The notes: generated by a model from the sequence alone, not told the origin. A stretch of 46,896 nt of DNA from Minisyncoccota bacterium (GCA_041674945.1 JBAYUT010000002.1:1-46896); one strand, 5' to 3'; positions 27,945-39,833 are shown, numbered from the stretch's first letter. Made by a program: numbers and translations.

Positions 27945-28814
27945 ATGGACGGGGGACATTCCGACAGCGGCACGTTGCAGCTCCCCTCCGCGCTATTCTC
28001 ATGGGACAGTCCGCAGAAGGATGGCGGGAGTGATTTGCTAACACCTATTTCACAGGCGCTTGCAGAGCTCAAGCGCCGACAGGCCGATTCCGATCTCAAG
28101 CAGCGAGTCTTGGATTACCTTGACAATGATATTCCAGCGTATTTTGCACAGGGGCCGATTCTATACCTGGCGCGTCACCTAGCGACACCAAACCTCGAAA
28201 CCATTCGGTTCTCGAGTCTTCTCCGCGCATTCAGCGTTCCCGTTGTTATTGGCCAGGATCCGAGTGATAAGTTTGTATCCAATAATCCGCTCAAGCGAGC
28301 GCTCTGTCGCCTGCCGGTACACACTGCGAAGATGAATTCTGACGGCTCGACGGCAGAAGAATATCAAAAAGTGACCATTGTCGATTTCAATGTTGCTAAT
28401 GGAAAGCCGTTTCAAGAGATTGAGACACTATGGGGTGAGAAGTTGACCAGATTTCACGCAGGACTGTGTTCGCGACTCTTTGATTCGGCGGTTCGGCTAG
28501 AGGACGACTCTCCCTGGATTGACAGGCACCATCGTGGGGACCTCTTGGCACATTACAGAGAGTTCCTCGCACTATTCATTGTAGGGGGCGTCCTGTTCGA
28601 GGATTTCTTGTCAGATGACCCAGAGGAGCTTGAGTTTATGGAGACGGTGTTTCGGCCTGCTTTTTCCCACGTTGAGAAAGTATTTGGGGTCCGCCCACTG
28701 ATTACGCAGCTGTTGCCGCGCTCTGCTCAAAGTGAGCTGTTTTGGATGGCGTACCCCAGAGAGGTCCTCGACATAATTAATGGTATACCTGGGCGTGCGG
28801 CAGAGTACGTATGA
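27945..28814 (+). CDS. hypothetical protein (289 aa), no recognisable domain
   Basis: Long ORF in the low-GC segment. Its stop overlaps the EamA start (ATGA). Confidence 0.5.
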   Translation: MDGGHSDSGTLQLPSALFSWDSPQKDGGSDLLTPISQALAELKRRQADSDLKQRVLDYLDNDIPAYFAQGPILYLARHLATPNLETIRFSSLLRAFSVPVVIGQDPSDKFVSNNPLKRALCRLPVHTAKMNSDGSTAEEYQKVTIVDFNVANGKPFQEIETLWGEKLTRFHAGLCSRLFDSAVRLEDDSPWIDRHHRGDLLAHYREFLALFIVGGVLFEDFLSDDPEELEFMETVFRPAFSHVEKVFGVRPLITQLLPRSAQSELFWMAYPREVLDIINGIPGRAAEYV

Positions 28815-29728
28815 GTTGGTTTTTTCTTGCGCTGGTCGGGCCTTTTCTGTACGCTGCCACCAACCACATTGATAAGATAATCCTCGAAAAGTATTTCAAG
28901 GAGGGTGGCGTAGGCTCGCTGCTTATTGTCTCAGCTCTCTCATCGGTGCTTGCGCTCCCATTCATATTTGCGTTTGACACAAGTGTTTTCGCCGTGAGCG
29001 CAATGAATGTGGTCGCGCTGTCGATTGTTGGTATTTTGAACGTGATGGTTCTTTGGTTCTATCTCACAGCACTTAAGGCAGAGGAGGCCTCGGTCGCGGT
29101 GGTGTTCTATCAGCTGGTGCCGGTCTTTGGCTATGTCTTCGGCTACTTCATTCTCGGCGAGACGCTCACGGCGCTTCAGTTGGTCGCAATGGGCGTCATT
29201 ATTCTTGGTACCGCTATCATTTCCTTCGAAATTGAGGAGGACAATCATTTTCGCCTCAGAGTAAACACTGTTTTTTTCATGACAGCCGCTGCGCTGTGCT
29301 GGGCCCTCGAGTCGGTAATATTTAAGGCCGTCGCACTCGAAGAGAGCGTGGTGCGCTCTCTCTTCTGGGAGCATCTCATGCTCTCTGTGGCTGGAGCGCT
29401 GATATTCTGTTGTATCCCGCTGTATCGAAAGCACTTTCTTATCGCCATGCGTGGAAACTCAGCAGGCGTTCTTGGTCTCAATCTGCTCAACGAGACACTC
29501 TACATGGTCGGTAACATTGTCTTTGCCTTCGCGTACCTGCTTGCGCCAATTGCACTAGTGTTGCTGGGCGAGTCATATCAGCCGTTGTTTGTGCTAGGGA
29601 TTGGAGTGCTGCTTACTATGCTTTTCCCAACTATTGTGGAGGAGAAGTTATATTTGAGACATCTCTCGCAGAAGATTGCCGCTATTGCACTCACGGGTAT
29701 CGGAACGTACCTACTGCTAGTTTCATAA
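28811..29728 (+). CDS. EamA/DMT-superfamily transporter
   Basis: Ten TM helices in two EamA-like halves (YAATNHIDKIILEKY..., GETLTALQLVAMGVIILG). Confidence 0.8.
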   Translation: MSWFFLALVGPFLYAATNHIDKIILEKYFKEGGVGSLLIVSALSSVLALPFIFAFDTSVFAVSAMNVVALSIVGILNVMVLWFYLTALKAEEASVAVVFYQLVPVFGYVFGYFILGETLTALQLVAMGVIILGTAIISFEIEEDNHFRLRVNTVFFMTAAALCWALESVIFKAVALEESVVRSLFWEHLMLSVAGALIFCCIPLYRKHFLIAMRGNSAGVLGLNLLNETLYMVGNIVFAFAYLLAPIALVLLGESYQPLFVLGIGVLLTMLFPTIVEEKLYLRHLSQKIAAIALTGIGTYLLLVS

Positions 29729-29746
29729 AAGCACCTCTGGATGTCG

Positions 29747-29755
29747 TGCTATTAT
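29747..29755 (+). promoter_or_regulatory. extended -10 box TGcTATTAT, 7 nt upstream of ATG 29763
   Basis: TG at 29747-29748, TATTAT at 29750..29755. Confidence 0.45.
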
Positions 29756-29762
29756 ATACTGC

Positions 29763-30113
29763 ATGAGATTGCGTAACTCATCAATACTGTACGTACTGGT
29801 GCCGAGCTTAGTTGTTGTCGGGCTCATGTCATACTTGCGGTTCTTTATTAGTCGGGATTATCTGGTAACGTATGAAGGGTCCTGTGATCCTGCAATCGCC
29901 TCTTGCTACGTAGGCTGTGAGGATGACGAATGTTCGGAGGAGTATTTTTACACGATTGTAGAGCGCCGAGCGGATATACTTTATGCGCAATGTGGCCCGA
30001 GTGTTGATGGTTGTGAACAGTCCGACGCCTGTCTTCCTGATGAGGCCGGGTGCGTAATTGCGTATTGTGATGCTGCCACCGAGCTCGACATGTGCGATAC
30101 TCAAGCTGAATAA
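29763..30113 (+). CDS. membrane-anchored Cys-rich (10 Cys) extracytoplasmic protein
   Basis: N-terminal TM helix (ILYVLVPSLVVVGLMSYL), then an acidic domain with 10 cysteines. Confidence 0.5.
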   Translation: MRLRNSSILYVLVPSLVVVGLMSYLRFFISRDYLVTYEGSCDPAIASCYVGCEDDECSEEYFYTIVERRADILYAQCGPSVDGCEQSDACLPDEAGCVIAYCDAATELDMCDTQAE

Positions 30114-30116
30114 ATT

Positions 30117-30650
30117 ATGTACTCTTGGATGAACAAGAAGCTGAAGGTTGGAGAGACTCAAAAGCACGGCATGGGTATTTTTGCTATGGACGATATACGG
30201 AAGGGCGAAACCTTGTTCGTTATGGGTGGACACATAATTGACATCGAGACGGAGAATACACTCGATGAGTTTCAGATCGATAAGCCAATTGAGATCTCCA
30301 AGGAGTTTTCCTTCTGTCCAATCAGTCCTTCCGACATGATGCTTATGCCTCAACACTATGTGAATCATAGTTGCGAACCGAACGCGGGCTTTAAACGCTC
30401 AAACTTTATGCTTGCCATTCAGGATATCCCGAAAGGGGATGAGGTCAGATATGATTATGCAATGATTATCGCAGGTAACCCGGACAGCAAAAATTATTTT
30501 TCTATGGAGTGTACTTGCGGGTCGGTGCTGTGTCGAAAAATCATTGATGAAGAGGGCTGGAAGGATCCCGTCCTGCAGAAGAAATACCGAGGGCATTTTC
30601 AGCAGTACATAGAGGAGATGATCGATGGTGAGTTTTCCACGGGCATATGA
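30117..30650 (+). CDS. SET-domain protein-lysine methyltransferase-like protein with post-SET Cys cluster
   Basis: GMGIFA, YVNHSCEPN, EVRYDY and post-SET CTCGSVLCRK. Starts 3 nt after the previous stop. Confidence 0.8.
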   Translation: MYSWMNKKLKVGETQKHGMGIFAMDDIRKGETLFVMGGHIIDIETENTLDEFQIDKPIEISKEFSFCPISPSDMMLMPQHYVNHSCEPNAGFKRSNFMLAIQDIPKGDEVRYDYAMIIAGNPDSKNYFSMECTCGSVLCRKIIDEEGWKDPVLQKKYRGHFQQYIEEMIDGEFSTGI

Positions 30651-32323
30651 TCTGTAATCTGTACACTGAACCGTTCTTTTTTTTGTTCTCGGCTGATTTG
30701 CCAGCGCTTTTGTATTATTCGCACATTCCCGCCGCAGTGCTCGCTCTCGTGGTCGGGGCGTTCGTATTCGCGCATGATCCTCGAGTTCTGCTAAATCGAT
30801 TGCTTTTTTACATAGGTCTTATTTTCTCGCTCTGGACCCTGGCGAATTTAATCGTCTGGACCAACATTCATAGCGATTTCATATTGTTCGTCTGGTCATA
30901 TTTTGGTATCCTTTCGTCTCTTCTGTCTGTGTTTTGTGTGTATTTCATCTACGCTTTTCTCAAGAAAGGGGATGTCTCTCTCGGACATAAGCTAGTCTTT
31001 CTGACACTGCTTGCGCCAGTGTTCATTCTTGCTTCTACGTCCATGAATCTCGGGGGATTTGATCTAATCGCGTGCGACGCTTTTGCGTATGAGAATCTCG
31101 CATTCTACACCTACTACACAATGCTCGGTGTTCTTGCGATGGTTTGGATATTCTGGTTGCTTGCTCGCGCCTATCGCTCTGCGGCGCCGGATTTCAAAAA
31201 GCAAATTGTGCTCATGGGTATAGGAATGGAATTCTTCTTGTTTTCTTTTTTTATCATTATCTTTTTTTCATCCTACCTAACTGGCGCAGGGTTCCTCGAG
31301 AGCTCTGAAGCTGAGTTCTATGCCTTTTTTGGAATGATTATCTTTATGTCGTTTATTGCCTACATGATCGTTCGTTTTAAGACGTTTAACGTGGGGCTTG
31401 TGGCATCGCAGGCGTTGGTTATCGCTCTTGTGATACTGATTGGATCTCAGTTCACTTATGTTAGGTCAACGACGAGTGTCGTATTGAGCTCAATTACACT
31501 AGTGCTTACTATCGTTGCGGGGTATATCTTAGTACGTAGCGTTAAACGCGAGATCGAGCAACGCGAAGTTGTCGAAAGCCTCGCCAAGACGCTCGACGAG
31601 ACCAACGGTAGACAGGAGACGCTCATCCACTTTATCGGGCACGAGGTTAAGGGTTTCTTGACCAAAGACACGGGAGCGTTCTCCTCGCTTATGGACGGAG
31701 ACTTTGGGCCTCTGCCTGAGCCGCTTAAGCCCTTTGTGACGCGCGCACTGCTTGAATCGCGTGCGGGGGCCGACTCGGTGGCGCAGATATTGAAGGCCTC
31801 AAACCTTAAGAAGGGCACCGTGACCTACGCCAAGGAGCCGTTTGACCTGAAGGACCTTGTCGCCAAGGCAGTGGAGAAGGGTAAGCTGAGCGCTGAGCAA
31901 AAGGGCGTCACGCTCAGCTTCTCTGCGGCAGAAGGGTCGTACACCATGGTGGGTGACGCGCCGCAGCTCGCCGACCACGTGCTCCGGAATCTTATCGACA
32001 ATGCTATTAACTACACGCCTGCAGGCACCATAGCGGTGACGCTCAAAAATGAGAGCGGCAAACTCGTGTTTGCCGTGAAGGACTCGGGTATCGGTATTAC
32101 CGAGGCAGACAAGAAGCGCCTCTTTACCGAGGGCGGCCACGGGGAGAATTCGCAGAAGGTGAATGCACACTCCACTGGGTACGGCCTCTATATCGCCAAG
32201 AACATTACCGAGGCACATGGCGGTACGATACGAGCTGAGAGCGAGGGGGAGGGCAAGGGCTCGACCTTTATTGCAGAGTTTCCCGCATCTGACGTACCGG
32301 ACGGTAATAAACACGCGGCATAG
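30647..32323 (+). CDS. sensor histidine kinase, N-terminal 7TM-type membrane sensor (HK1)
   Basis: About 290 aa of TM helices, H-box ETLIHFIGHEVKGF, N-box NLIDNAINYTP, G1 DSGIGIT and G2 GYGLYIAK. ATGA overlap with the SET gene. Confidence 0.85.
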   Translation: MICNLYTEPFFFLFSADLPALLYYSHIPAAVLALVVGAFVFAHDPRVLLNRLLFYIGLIFSLWTLANLIVWTNIHSDFILFVWSYFGILSSLLSVFCVYFIYAFLKKGDVSLGHKLVFLTLLAPVFILASTSMNLGGFDLIACDAFAYENLAFYTYYTMLGVLAMVWIFWLLARAYRSAAPDFKKQIVLMGIGMEFFLFSFFIIIFFSSYLTGAGFLESSEAEFYAFFGMIIFMSFIAYMIVRFKTFNVGLVASQALVIALVILIGSQFTYVRSTTSVVLSSITLVLTIVAGYILVRSVKREIEQREVVESLAKTLDETNGRQETLIHFIGHEVKGFLTKDTGAFSSLMDGDFGPLPEPLKPFVTRALLESRAGADSVAQILKASNLKKGTVTYAKEPFDLKDLVAKAVEKGKLSAEQKGVTLSFSAAEGSYTMVGDAPQLADHVLRNLIDNAINYTPAGTIAVTLKNESGKLVFAVKDSGIGITEADKKRLFTEGGHGENSQKVNAHSTGYGLYIAKNITEAHGGTIRAESEGEGKGSTFIAEFPASDVPDGNKHAA

Positions 32324-32358
32324 ATTATTGAGGAGCGTCGCGCGCTATACTGACAACA

Positions 32359-33963
32359 ATGAGCCTCGTTGCTGAAGCGTATATTGTGCTGGTCGTTGCT
32401 GCGTTCAATCTTGTACTTGGGGGGATTATCTTGGCGCAAGACTTCCGCAGCGCGGCGAACCGCGCTTTTACAATTATTGCGCTCACCATCGCCGGCTGGG
32501 GTCTGACCGTGGGTCTGTATCTGCTTGTCGTTCCCGACAATGTCTTCTATTACGAGCTGCTACCGCGCCTCGTGTACTTCTTCGGTATTAGCACTTCGGC
32601 CGCGTTTCTCCACTTTGCCCTCGTCTTCGACGCGGAGAAGCCGCCCTCGCGGGTGATAACCTGGCTGATTGCGCTTACGACTGCGGGCGTGTTCGCGGTG
32701 TATGTATTTACGGATCTTGTTATCAGAGGGCCGCTCGTGACGCCGTCTGGCATTAAGGGATTTGTGTTCGGCCCGCTGCGGTTTATTGTCGACATCGAAT
32801 TGTGGGGATTTTTCTTTATTGCGTTTGTTATTTTCATCAACAAGTACCGGCGTTTCGCTGGGCAGGCGCGCTTGCAGGTGCTGGTTATCCTCCTCGGCAC
32901 CTACACCGCGCTTGCTATTGCCGGTACCACCAACAACACCCTACTTGCGCTGGGTATCTTTGAGTATTTCTGGGTCGGACCTACGGCGGTGGTTATCTGG
33001 ACTCTCTCCATGGCGTACTCGGTAGCACGGCTACAGCTCTTCGACGTTAAAGTCATCGTGGCCGAAGTGCTGATTTTCGCCCTCTGGCTCATCTTCCTCC
33101 TGAGAGCGGTGCTCTCGCAAGATGAGTCAGATTTTGCTATCAATATCGTCCTGTTTGTCGCCGTGCTTGTTCTCGGCGTGTTCCTCATCAATAGTGTCCT
33201 CCGCAAGGTGAAACAAAGGGAGCAGATTGAGTTGCAGGACAAGGCGCTTGCATTGGTCAATGCCAAGCAGGAGACGCTGCTGCACTTTATTAGTCACGAG
33301 GTCAAAGGCTACTTTGCCAAGAGTGAGGCAGTGTTCTCGGGCATCACTGAGGGCGACTTTGGCCCGGCGTCACCGAGCCTCCGTACCATGGCCGCGCGGG
33401 GGCTCGAAGACGTGAGGATGGGGGTATCGATGGTGTTGAGCATTCTTGATGCCTCCAGTATGAAGAACGGGACTACCTCGTACCGCATGAGCCTCTTCGA
33501 CCTTAAGAAAACGGTAGCTGAGGTGGCCGAGGAGCTCCGCCCGCGTGCAGAGGAGAAGGGTCTCACGTACCAAGTGACTGGCGTCACGGGCGCGGTAGCG
33601 GTCGTGCGCGGCGATGAGGTAAAGATACGCAAGCACGTGATCTACAACCTTATCGACAACGCGATCCTCTACACGCCCGCGGGGTCGATAACCATTGCGC
33701 TCGATTGTACCGCTTCGTCCGCGCGCCTCACGGTCGTGGACACGGGCGTCGGTATCACTCCGGACGATATGCAGCGCCTCTTTACCGAGGGTGGGCGAGG
33801 AAGGGAGGCGCTTACGGTAAACGTCCACTCGACCGGCTTTGGCTTGTATATTGTTAAACGCGTGCTCGATGCGCACGGCGCGAGCATCGAGGCCACCTCG
33901 GCAGGCGCAGGCAAGGGGGCGCAGTTTGCCGTAGAGTTTCCGCTCGCACATCCAACAACATGA
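32359..33963 (+). CDS. sensor histidine kinase, 7TM-type (HK2)
   Basis: H-box ETLLHFISHEVKGY, plus NLIDNAILYTP, DTGVGIT and GFGLYIVK. Confidence 0.85.
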   Translation: MSLVAEAYIVLVVAAFNLVLGGIILAQDFRSAANRAFTIIALTIAGWGLTVGLYLLVVPDNVFYYELLPRLVYFFGISTSAAFLHFALVFDAEKPPSRVITWLIALTTAGVFAVYVFTDLVIRGPLVTPSGIKGFVFGPLRFIVDIELWGFFFIAFVIFINKYRRFAGQARLQVLVILLGTYTALAIAGTTNNTLLALGIFEYFWVGPTAVVIWTLSMAYSVARLQLFDVKVIVAEVLIFALWLIFLLRAVLSQDESDFAINIVLFVAVLVLGVFLINSVLRKVKQREQIELQDKALALVNAKQETLLHFISHEVKGYFAKSEAVFSGITEGDFGPASPSLRTMAARGLEDVRMGVSMVLSILDASSMKNGTTSYRMSLFDLKKTVAEVAEELRPRAEEKGLTYQVTGVTGAVAVVRGDEVKIRKHVIYNLIDNAILYTPAGSITIALDCTASSARLTVVDTGVGITPDDMQRLFTEGGRGREALTVNVHSTGFGLYIVKRVLDAHGASIEATSAGAGKGAQFAVEFPLAHPTT

Positions 33964-35567
33964 CACCAGAACTACAGGCCTATGCGGTGCTTATCGTAGC
34001 GTCCTTCAATATCGTGCTTACGGGCATTGTGTTAGCACAGGACTTCCGCGATCGCACCAATGTGGCTTTTGCCATGCTTACGCTCTCTGCGGCGCTCTGG
34101 GGCTTCGGTACAGGTATCTTTCTCATTATTGCCCCTGAGCACGTGACGATGCTTGAGTTTGCAGGGCGCTTCAACTACTTCTTTGGTGGCTCCATATCGA
34201 CGGCGTTTCTCTACTTCTCACTCGTTTTTGCCGAACAAGCGCCACCGTCGCGCCGGCTCGCCGCTCTTATTTTCTTCCCCACCGTGGTGTTCTTGTTTGT
34301 GTATCCGTTTTCCGACTTCATCATTGCGCGGTCTCTGATCTACCCTGACGGTGTGCGAGGCTTTCTGTACGGCACCTACCACTACTTTTTCGACGTGCAT
34401 ACGTGGTCCTATTTCGCTATTGCTTTTGTGGTCCTCGCGCAGAAGTATCTACGACTAGTCGGCAGGTCCAAGCAGCAGGTCCTGCTCATCCTTACGGGGA
34501 CGGCGCTTACCTTTGCGGTGGCTTCAGTATGTAACATTGTGCTGCCGCACGTCTTCGGGGTCTTCCGCTACATCTGGATCGGCCCCGTGGCGATTATCTT
34601 CTGGATCGGCTTGGTGACGTATGCGGTTGCGCGCCATCAGCTATTCAATATACGTGTCATCGCTGCTGAGCTGCCGATTATTCTCTTGTGGCTCGTTCTC
34701 CTCTTCCGTGCCGCGATTTCTCAAGGGACGACACTCTTCGTTATTAATGTGGTATTTCTCGTCATTGTGCTTATCTTGGGCGTATTTTTCATCCGAAGCG
34801 TCATCAGTGAGGTGCAACTACGCGAGCTGATTGATCGTCAGGAGCGGGAACTTGCGCTGGTAAACGGCCAGCAAGAGTCTTTGCTCGATTTCATTAGCCA
34901 TGAGGTGAAGAGTTATTTTGGCAAGATTAAAGCCGCCTTTGCCGGTATAGGAGAGGGAGATTATGGTCCGCCCACGCCGTCGCTCAAAGAGATCGCGGCG
35001 CGCGGGCTTGTGGATGTCCGGACCGGCATGGCCATGGTGGTGAGTATCCTCGACGCGGCGAACCTCAAGCAAGGCTCGGTGAGTTACAAGAGGGCTCCGT
35101 TTGACCTAGCGGCAACTCTCCGTTCTGTAGTTGCAGAGCTCCGCCCCGCGGCCGAGGAGCGTGGACTAGCGCTCAATATTGAGGGTGACCTGACCAAAGC
35201 CTGTGAAGTGGTGGGAGATGAAGACATGCTGCGCAAGCACGTGCTCCGTAACCTCATAGATAACGCCATACGCTACACAATTTCCGGATCGGTAACGGTC
35301 TCGCTCCGCAACAAGACGACCTATGTAGAACTGGTCGTTGCTGACACGGGCGTCGGCATCACTCCTGAAGACATGGGGCACCTCTTCACCGAAGGCGGGC
35401 ACGGAAAGGATTCGATCAAGGTCAACGTGCACTCGACCGGATACGGCCTCTTTATTGCCAAGCAGGTAACTGAGGCGCAAGGCGGCACGATCCGAGCTGA
35501 GTCGTCGGGTGCGGGCAAGGGGTCCCGATTTGTGGTGGAGCTGCCGCTCACCTCGACTACTCACTGA
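33960..35567 (+). CDS. sensor histidine kinase, 7TM-type (HK3), close paralogue of HK2
   Basis: H-box ESLLDFISHEVKSY, plus NLIDNAIRYT, DTGVGIT and GYGLFIAK. ATGA overlap with HK2. Confidence 0.85.
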   Translation: MTPELQAYAVLIVASFNIVLTGIVLAQDFRDRTNVAFAMLTLSAALWGFGTGIFLIIAPEHVTMLEFAGRFNYFFGGSISTAFLYFSLVFAEQAPPSRRLAALIFFPTVVFLFVYPFSDFIIARSLIYPDGVRGFLYGTYHYFFDVHTWSYFAIAFVVLAQKYLRLVGRSKQQVLLILTGTALTFAVASVCNIVLPHVFGVFRYIWIGPVAIIFWIGLVTYAVARHQLFNIRVIAAELPIILLWLVLLFRAAISQGTTLFVINVVFLVIVLILGVFFIRSVISEVQLRELIDRQERELALVNGQQESLLDFISHEVKSYFGKIKAAFAGIGEGDYGPPTPSLKEIAARGLVDVRTGMAMVVSILDAANLKQGSVSYKRAPFDLAATLRSVVAELRPAAEERGLALNIEGDLTKACEVVGDEDMLRKHVLRNLIDNAIRYTISGSVTVSLRNKTTYVELVVADTGVGITPEDMGHLFTEGGHGKDSIKVNVHSTGYGLFIAKQVTEAQGGTIRAESSGAGKGSRFVVELPLTSTTH

Positions 35568-39422: not shown

Positions 39423-39833
39423 CTACGCGGAGCACTTAGCGCAACGACATCCGACTGGCTTAATGTGTCTGTCAAAATATTCCTTTCCATAGTCATAAGT
39501 GAGTTCGGTGCCAGCGGGGATGCGCTTGCGAGAAAAGATAAACACGCGGCCTCGCGGGCCAACAGCTTCGCAGTTGCCCGCGCATGAGTGGTTGATGTAG
39601 CGGGCAATGTTCGAGGGGATGTTGCCGTCGATGGTCTTATTCTTGCCAATCTCAAAAAGGTACTTGCCCGAGTCGCGTATAGCCACCTCCTCGCTGACGG
39701 GCTTGCCAATATACTCAACAATACAAACCCCTTTGGGAATATTATCCTCGGTAAAGAGGCCCTTACCGGCCTTAGACCTCCGCACCCGTAGCTTGTAGCC
39801 GCCAGGAGTATATTTCGATCGTCGCGTTGCCAT
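39423..39833 (-). CDS. SET-domain protein-lysine methyltransferase-like protein (136 aa) with post-SET Cys cluster
   Basis: GKGLFT, YINHSCAGN, ELTYDYG and a C-terminal CRCAKCS. Confidence 0.8.
   Translation of the reverse strand: MATRRSKYTPGGYKLRVRRSKAGKGLFTEDNIPKGVCIVEYIGKPVSEEVAIRDSGKYLFEIGKNKTIDGNIPSNIARYINHSCAGNCEAVGPRGRVFIFSRKRIPAGTELTYDYGKEYFDRHIKPVGCRCAKCSA

Follow-up and report, generated by a model that had tools for sequence, protein, structure and literature searches.

Prokaryotic SET-domain methyltransferases include Chlamydia NUE, Legionella RomA/LegAS4 and the Methanosarcina SET protein (PMC3980110, PMC2904774). They are encoded by stand-alone genes and are either secreted effectors that act on host histones or nucleoid-protein methylases; a 2014 review of bacterial SET proteins mentions no kinase or operon context for them. 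By contrast, the SET protein that we describe here, encoded in a 46,896-nucleotide (nt) stretch of DNA from a Minisyncoccota bacterium (GCA_041674945.1 JBAYUT010000002.1:1-46896; hereafter "the window", meaning the whole stretch), has its gene in an operon with genes for signalling and transport at the membrane, and comes from a lineage of the Candidate Phyla Radiation (CPR) that is either free-living or episymbiotic. Its gene ("SET" below) is preceded by genes for a cytoplasmic protein (FAM4), an EamA-family transporter and a small Cys-rich membrane protein (FAM5), and is followed by genes for three histidine kinases (HK1, HK2 and HK3). The window is a metagenome contig from ENA, and its relatives are annotated as Paceibacterota/Parcubacteria. 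A wider comparison suggests that the region belongs to a modular gene cluster, centred on the membrane, that occurs widely in Paceibacteria. We tentatively favour, at somewhat less than even probability, a reading in which SET is an optional methyltransferase module of a cluster for amine modification and export, with HK1 and the Cys-rich protein acting as a dedicated sensor whose regulator would be encoded elsewhere.

A first-pass annotation of the window knew of no described operonic coupling of a SET enzyme to sensor kinases. We likewise found no description in the full-text literature of SET-kinase operons, of CPR SET proteins or of SET-mediated kinase methylation, and nothing relevant in the literature on lysine methylation of histidine kinases. 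Each component belongs to a known type; the cluster as a conserved unit, the subfamily of SET proteins and the gene fusions of that subfamily appear to be undescribed.

With the Trithorax/MLL-, ASH1L- and NSD-type protein-lysine methyltransferases the SET protein has in common the fold, a GxG motif near the N-terminus that binds S-adenosylmethionine (SAM), two catalytic motifs (NHSCxPN and YDY) and a post-SET Zn cluster of the form CxCx4C. It differs from these enzymes in being a bare protein of 177 amino acids (aa) without AWS/pre-SET or chromatin-reader domains, in its family-specific C-terminal helical tail, in coming from a histone-less CPR bacterium, and in its genomic partners, a sensor kinase together with membrane proteins and enzymes of amino-acid transfer. 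A second point of comparison is BurB, which establishes that a SET-fold enzyme can methylate a free amino acid (PMC12542666; PDB 9l4v). Like the SET protein of the window, BurB is a small stand-alone bacterial SET-fold enzyme; it belongs to a metabolic cluster and has a small-molecule substrate. However, this Burkholderia enzyme S-methylates free methionine during dimethylsulfoniopropionate/malleicyprol biosynthesis, its gene context is unrelated, and the two proteins are only 17% identical in a structural alignment.

The cluster as a whole recalls MprF, the lysyl-phosphatidylglycerol synthase/flippase, and the GraSR/ApsSR-type kinases that control it; there too a PF09924 domain is functionally linked, in envelope modification, with a translocator and a sensor kinase that both lie in the membrane. 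Among relatives of the window the usual gene order is PF09924-EamA-Cys-rich protein-kinase, and one protein (P0336) joins PF09924 to SET. The window departs from the MprF pattern in that the gene slot ahead of EamA (the "X slot") holds FAM4 rather than PF09924, in that the synthase is stand-alone beside EamA rather than fused to the MprF flippase, and in that the kinase is of a HisKA_7TM type with ~9 transmembrane (TM) helices and has no linked regulator. No methyltransferase is known in MprF systems. To our knowledge, the only well-established SAM methyltransferase that tunes a kinase-coupled bacterial transmembrane signalling protein is CheR, and the CheR/CheB/methyl-accepting chemotaxis protein (MCP) system is the functional analogy behind the possibility, weighed below, that SET acts on the kinase itself. 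CheR belongs to class I (Rossmann fold), O-methylates glutamates of MCPs and is paired with the CheB demethylase, whereas the window enzyme is a class V SET protein with predicted amine N-methylation activity; no CheR, CheB or MCP domains were detected in Pfam/NCBIfam scans of the unit and its neighbours.

The SET protein and its family

The assignment of the protein to the SET family in the first-pass annotation, together with the NHSCEPN, YDY and CxCx4C motifs listed there, holds up well. The protein scores 49.2 bits with the Pfam SET model (PF00856; E=7.9e-13), whose curated cut-off is 22.4. Across 45 homologues, G18 and G20 of the GxG SAM motif, N83-H84-S85-C86, P88-N89 and D113-Y114 are invariant or nearly so, and the four cysteines of the post-SET Zn cluster (C86, the Cys of NHSC, and C132, C134 and C139 of CxCx4C) are invariant, as is the R of the longer string CxCx4C-R; the helical C-terminal tail is also conserved in the family (W148...LQ..Y.G.FQ). 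A family profile matches the SET and post-SET regions of MLL1 (E=2.7e-17), and the catalytic and post-SET motifs of the two line up. An AlphaFold2 (AF2) model of the protein (pLDDT 93.9) retrieves the SET domains of ASH1L, MLL and NSD in Foldseek at E~5e-9. This model has 349 PDB matches at E<=0.001, the top ones shown being SET domains, and the BurB structure is among the fold matches. Because the motifs are invariant, the family profile matches MLL1 and the confident model has a SET fold (beta-sheets with a pseudoknot), the protein has the appearance of an intact SAM-dependent methyltransferase. By itself, the fold leaves the class of substrate, protein or small molecule, undecided.

An exhaustive profile search recovered 294 representative clusters of the SET family at E<=1e-30, among them many double-SET proteins and several fusions; at E<=1e-10 the family has 3,134 members. 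Tandem duplication of SET is common in this family, either as adjacent genes or as double-SET proteins of ~340-400 aa (P0333, P0337, P0338 and P0343, among others; L018:8590-9701; L021:2-913). In a bin labelled Desulfurivibrionaceae (L006:9926-11062), the SET-matching frame spans 379 codons, and its score is much higher than that of proteins with one SET domain; the frame encodes either two SET domains or a fusion. Two families discussed below, FAM3 and FAM11, flank it.

Adjacency of SET to an orphan kinase

We compared two sets of related loci: 23 species-representative genome loci found through SET, and 80 metagenome loci found through the kinase, with counts for the latter taken from the 45 whose upstream sequence extends for 3.5 kb or more. 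Several of the source contigs that carry the cluster are 0.6-0.7 Mb long. In 17 of the 23 SET-seeded loci, SET has an HK1-type kinase immediately beside it, either downstream and co-directional or upstream and divergent; in the others the contig breaks off at SET, or the bin carries a non-CPR label (Desulfobacterota, Nitrospirota, Gammaproteobacteria). When SET loci are pooled, a kinase is adjacent in 40 of 41 CPR loci, with 26/27 for the window-type subfamily (type A) and 14/14 for a divergent subfamily (type B). SET is upstream in all 32 co-directional pairs, overlapping the kinase gene by 4 nt in six of them and separated from it by a gap of <=30 nt in eight. Adjacency in relatives had been set beforehand, by the first-pass annotation, as a test that could refute its proposal, and it is conserved. 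The adjacency of SET and kinase is not a matter of chance.

The dependence is one-way: SET relies on the cluster, and the kinase does not rely on SET. Only 16 of the 45 kinase-seeded loci (36%) contain SET, and in a tree of 96 non-redundant kinases those with SET (38) and those without (49) are interspersed, a distribution that reflects repeated gain and loss of SET in the cluster.

One explanation for the adjacency, which takes up the modifier of kinase signalling suggested in the first-pass annotation, is that SET is a protein-lysine methyltransferase that acts on the neighbouring kinase or its membrane partners, such that methylation of cytoplasmic lysines tunes autophosphorylation or phosphotransfer. 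The near-obligate association in CPR (40/41), which holds for co-directional and divergent pairs alike, fits this proposal, as do the frequent 4-nt overlaps, which suggest stoichiometric co-production, and the invariant cytoplasmic lysines of the kinase family, such as K335 by the phospho-His. In addition, the closest solved relatives of SET are protein-lysine methyltransferases, and type-B SET-kinase pairs persist without any X-slot enzyme. We regard kinase methylation as a serious rival because of the near-obligate adjacency and these type-B loci. Nonetheless, ~64% of HK1-type kinases have no SET, including the nearest relative of HK1 (L033, 78% identity), and no alignment column of the kinase, lysines included, tracks the presence of SET beyond a permutation null: the residue frequency that differs most between kinases with and without SET does so by 0.36, below the 95th percentile of the permutations (0.39). 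The SET family also occurs without kinases outside CPR. In the top 150 representatives we found no fusion of SET to a kinase or a receiver domain (REC), although SET is fused to enzymes and to transporters, and we saw no demethylase candidate in the cluster. Methylation of the kinases is neither the sole reading nor the best-supported one, and we consider it rather unlikely.

The domain content of the kinases bears out most of what had been said of them. HATPase_c (PF02518) matches all three at E 1e-21 to 1e-25 (HK1 8e-25, HK3 4e-23), and all three retain the H, N, G1 and G2 boxes, as previously described. Within the HK1 family, which comprises at least 896 clusters of homologues, the H-box His (H332, in the motif H-E-x-K-G) is invariant, as are N448, N452, D479-G481-G483 and G511-G513 of the N, G1 and G2 boxes, and full-length histidine kinase models of NCBIfam align over residues 310-532. 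The hmmscan check proposed in the first-pass annotation succeeded for SET and HATPase_c; by contrast, Pfam HisKA (PF00512) matches neither HK1 nor HK2 even at E<=1, and HisKA_7TM (PF16927) directly matches HK3 only (E=3.7e-12). HK2 is tied to HisKA_7TM solely by its full-length identity to HK3 (50%). HK1 is 41% identical to HK2 over the C-terminal 320 aa and aligns with HK2 and HK3 only from residue ~230 onward; its membrane domain is a remote relative of HisKA_7TM (hhalign probability 88.8%, E=2.5e-6), and 2 of 120 HK1 homologues have a precomputed PF16927 match. Hydropathy and the positive-inside rule suggest ~9 TM helices in HK1 rather than 7, with the N-terminus predicted to lie outside and the kinase domain inside. 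The family thus resembles HisKA_7TM kinases through HK3 and the relatedness of HK2 and HK1 to it, and differs from them in being systematically orphan and in being paired with a Cys-rich membrane-anchored protein.

One segment of the HK1 membrane domain stands out. In a predicted extracytoplasmic loop formed by residues 129-150 (window ~31031-31096), C143 and E149 are invariant in the family, and D144, A145 and F146 are nearly so. The loop is a candidate for binding a ligand or for contact with the Cys-rich protein.

An ad hoc REC hidden Markov model, which does detect receivers in related loci, found no receiver domain in six-frame translations of the whole 46.9-kb window, in agreement with the earlier annotation. 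There are only 3 unique matches in 1.24 Mb of related loci, whether SET is present or not. Because receivers are almost absent from this sequence, the whole HK1-type kinase family is locally orphan, with or without SET, and the missing regulator is not the mark of SET association that it had seemed to be. The same observation bears on a further explanation, in which SET takes the place of a response regulator, with the kinase phosphorylating SET or gating it allosterically and methylation being the output, the last point being one that the first-pass annotation had raised. The absence of a receiver in the window, its near absence from related loci and the translational coupling of SET to HK1 would all be expected of such a surrogate. 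However, most members of the kinase family have no SET and are equally regulator-less, so SET cannot be their general output. SET also has no receiver-like fold and no conserved acceptor Asp outside the catalytic YDY motif, and the CA domain of the kinase is canonical, as its DHp domain, with the invariant H332, appears to be. We consider this explanation very improbable.

Membrane and enzyme partners of SET

The kinase is usually preceded by a gene string in which a PF09924 aminoacyl-tRNA transferase, FAM4 or a PurD-like ATP-grasp protein is followed by EamA and a Cys-rich membrane protein; SET-less HK1 orthologues on long contigs show the same order, with a ~300-aa enzyme, EamA, a small Cys-rich protein and the kinase. 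A Cys-rich protein is the commonest partner in the 45 kinase-seeded loci, being encoded directly upstream of the kinase in 21 of them, and EamA is found in 17, PF09924 in 14 and FAM4 in 11. FAM5 lies immediately ahead of the kinase in 4/4 loci of SET-less HK1 orthologues, and EamA is present in 13 of 19 well-flanked type-A SET loci. PF09924 (LPG_synthase_C/DUF2156) is an aminoacyl-tRNA transferase domain that aminoacylates membrane lipids (PMC8913301, PMC7334510, PMC11630815). It never occurs together with FAM4 in the 45 kinase-seeded loci, and the PurD-like ATP-grasp family (FAM3) fills the equivalent slot in SET-seeded loci, divergent from EamA (X-slot genes beside EamA include those of L029-L058 and others; L030:3697-4596, L010:7656-8966 and window 27945-28814). 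Three unrelated families that never co-occur in one slot look like non-orthologous displacement of an amino-acid-ligating step.

No Pfam/NCBIfam family was found for FAM4, FAM5 or two membrane protein families described below, FAM11 and FAM C. FAM5 has one N-terminal hydrophobic helix following Arg residues, and its Cys pattern is conserved across 50 open reading frames (ORFs). FAM4, which recurs beside EamA, SET and the kinase in related loci, has 134 homologues in Paceibacterota, all labelled 'hypothetical', and its AF2 model has a pLDDT of 89. There is no PF09924 within the window. We considered FAM4 as a divergent PF09924 protein and rejected this (hhalign probability 0.2%, no PDB sequence match); a resemblance to HUP/pantothenate-synthetase-like proteins is only weak (E>=9e-3, TM<=0.31) and is not relied on here.

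Two further kinds of gene recur near the cluster. AdoMet decarboxylase or pyruvoyl arginine decarboxylase genes, of the polyamine pathway, lie directly upstream of the X slot in four loci (L028:5269-5655, L032:3297-3683, L030:3190-3669, L031:3274-3753). Aminoacyl-tRNA synthetase genes, at times in two copies, are found within a few kb in L029-L032, L005, L014, L019 and L087-L101, and are of the tRNA-synt_1b (Trp/Tyr) and tRNA-synt_2 (Asp/Lys/Asn) types. Their recurrence could be plain CPR synteny, or could reflect a dedicated supply of aminoacyl-tRNA for the PF09924 enzyme.

Where SET is found in non-CPR loci there is no kinase, and SET abuts FAM3, FAM4 or a membrane protein of ~184 aa (FAM11). 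In type-B SET-kinase pairs, a polytopic membrane protein of ~215 aa (FAM C) is encoded directly upstream in 12 of 14; FAM C was considered as a relative of FAM11, which hhalign does not support (probability 0.4%). Verified gene fusions join SET to PF09924 (P0336), to FAM4 (P0344, P0402), as a pair of SET domains to the FAM C membrane domain (P0374), to a major facilitator superfamily (MFS) transporter (P0468) and to AdoMet_dc (P0477).

The fusion partners of SET are the enzymes and transporters of the cluster, and we favour, tentatively, the optional-module reading. In its favour we count the one-way association of SET with the kinase, the conserved context of the cluster, the kinase-free adjacency of SET to FAM3, FAM4 or FAM11 in other phyla, the gene fusions, the lipid aminoacylation known for PF09924, the precedent of BurB and the decarboxylase genes beside the X slot. 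On this proposal, the core of the cluster would be an orphan polytopic kinase (~9-TM, HisKA_7TM-like), usually placed after the small membrane-anchored Cys-rich extracytoplasmic protein. EamA would stand upstream of this core, itself preceded by PF09924, FAM4 or the PurD-like ATP-grasp protein, which are mutually exclusive, and the SET module would be inserted directly upstream of the kinase, often with translational coupling. SET would then act at the membrane, with the enzyme and transporter partners of the cluster, on a lysine or lysine-like amino group of a membrane-associated molecule; most plausibly this would be the product of the X-slot enzyme (FAM4 in the window), which EamA would then handle. 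HK1 and the Cys-rich protein would sense the status of the envelope or a ligand, and would regulate the cluster by way of a response regulator whose gene lies at some other site. The data establish the domain identities, the conserved but one-way associations, the fusions and the lack of a regulator nearby; the substrate, the direction in which regulation runs and the distal regulator are inferred.

Several observations weigh against this reading. The close characterized structural relatives of SET (MLL, ASH1L and NSD) are protein-lysine methyltransferases, for which the post-SET Zn cluster is also typical. None of the 14 type-B loci has an X-slot enzyme within 5 kb, only FAM C, so the X-slot product cannot be the universal substrate of SET. 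The FAM4 model has no significant match to PDB folds. The fusions come from metagenomic gene calls, in which occasional mis-assembly or read-through is possible. Lastly, receivers are absent from the window and all but absent from the related loci, no response regulator was located, and the regulatory arm of the proposal is hence purely inferred.

A different possibility is that the substrates of SET are cellular proteins with no link to the cluster, for instance ribosomal, nucleoid, pilus or surface proteins, and that its position reflects no more than co-transcription with the kinase operon or regulation by it. Nucleoid or host proteins are the targets of characterized archaeal and bacterial SET proteins, accessory cargo is common in two-component operons, and the repeated gain and loss of SET within the cluster would suit such cargo; moreover, the window has a second, different SET gene that sits elsewhere, by a pilin-like gene. 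However, the position of SET is very specific, directly upstream of the kinase or divergent from it, in two divergent SET subfamilies. Its recurrent fusions, and its cross-phylum adjacency to the same enzyme and membrane families, are unexpected for a passenger gene. We think it unlikely that SET acts on unlinked proteins.

The optional-module reading can be taken a step further, to a version that we regard as a doubtful extrapolation. SET may methylate a non-protein amine, namely a lysyl or aminoalkyl head group placed on a membrane lipid or exported metabolite by PF09924, FAM4 or the ATP-grasp protein; EamA, the MFS transporter or FAM C would translocate the product, and the ~9-TM kinase and the Cys-rich protein would sense the envelope, closing a feedback loop. 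If true, this would be a new pathway of lipid or metabolite N-methylation and would make SET the first enzyme of its kind to act on an aminoacylated lipid, answering the question of what SET proteins do in free-living bacteria.

Layout of the locus and implications for Paceibacteria

The five ORFs described in the first-pass annotation, from the Cys-rich gene to HK3, are all present (Table 1), as are the 4-nt ATGA overlaps of SET with HK1 and of HK2 with HK3. The unit does not begin with the Cys-rich gene, as had been thought: a tightly packed co-directional array starts upstream of it, at 27945, and includes the FAM4 and EamA genes, which that annotation overlooked. FAM4 and EamA overlap by 4 nt, and 34 nt separate the end of EamA from the Cys-rich ORF. 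The extended -10 proposed at 29747 is present as a string but is missed by a promoter consensus scan, and promoter and terminator scans of the locus are uninformative, with match counts equal to the shuffled expectation.

Table 1. Features of the SET-kinase locus, in window coordinates
Feature	Position	Strand	Remarks
FAM4	27945..28814	+	~290-aa cytoplasmic protein (289 aa); X-slot gene; outside the coordinates of the first-pass annotation
EamA-family (drug/metabolite transporter) membrane protein	28811..29728	+	Pfam EamA E=1.5e-11; conserved cluster member
Extended -10-like string TGCTATTAT	29747..29755	+	Putative; 8 nt ahead of the ATG of the Cys-rich gene
FAM5, Cys-rich protein with N-terminal membrane anchor	29763..30113	+	Predicted extracytoplasmic domain with ~10 Cys
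SET + post-SET methyltransferase	30117..30650	+	177 aa; alternative start 30129; conserved C-terminal helical tail
HK1, orphan sensor histidine kinase	30647..32323	+	~9-TM sensor domain, predicted DHp domain with H332, CA domain
HK2, paralogous HisKA_7TM-type kinase	32359..33963	+	35-nt gap after HK1
HK3, paralogous HisKA_7TM kinase	33960..35567	+	4-nt overlap with HK2

A public gene call starts SET at its second Met (173 aa), which is why a lookup of the exact 177-aa sequence returned no match. HK1 is 507 aa long in one public gene call; alignments of homologues favour the long form that overlaps SET.

GC content changes along the array, being 0.45-0.53 in the FAM4-EamA-Cys-rich-SET-HK1 block (27945-32323; 0.48-0.61 at third codon positions, GC3) and 0.55-0.59 in HK2, HK3 (32359-35567) and the flanking genes (GC3 0.66-0.74). 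A metagenome locus (L085:8764-13788) has the same tandem array of three kinases with no SET upstream of the first, and HK2 and HK3 find their closest relatives in the second and third kinases of this array. HK2 and HK3 cluster with these paralogues in the kinase tree, and as far as their sequences tell are a local paralogous expansion. Because the GC content of the block is lower and HK2 and HK3 group with the L085 paralogues, the five genes ending in HK1 may be a separately acquired cassette beside a resident kinase pair.

The second SET gene of the window, which was also overlooked in the first-pass annotation, lies ~3.9 kb downstream of HK3 at 39423-39833, on the minus strand. It encodes a protein of 136 aa (Pfam SET E=3e-20) that is 29% identical to the first, and adjoins a gene with a weak N_methyl (type IV pilin-like) match. 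Its orthologue in L085 (16601-17020, minus strand) has the same relative position.

The role of SET methyltransferases in bacteria that have neither histones nor a eukaryotic host is a long-standing question. Our analysis defines a sizeable bacterial SET subfamily with consistent, testable genomic partners: an orphan polytopic kinase, transporters and amino-acid-transfer enzymes, including the lipid-aminoacylating PF09924. A substrate can thereby be sought among a few concrete candidates: the kinase, the partners in the membrane, or a lipid or metabolite that is aminoacylated. The analysis also brings to light a widespread, unannotated envelope-related cluster in Paceibacteria. Because these bacteria live attached to a host and are unable to synthesize lipids of their own, the sensing and remodelling of the envelope are probably central to their biology.

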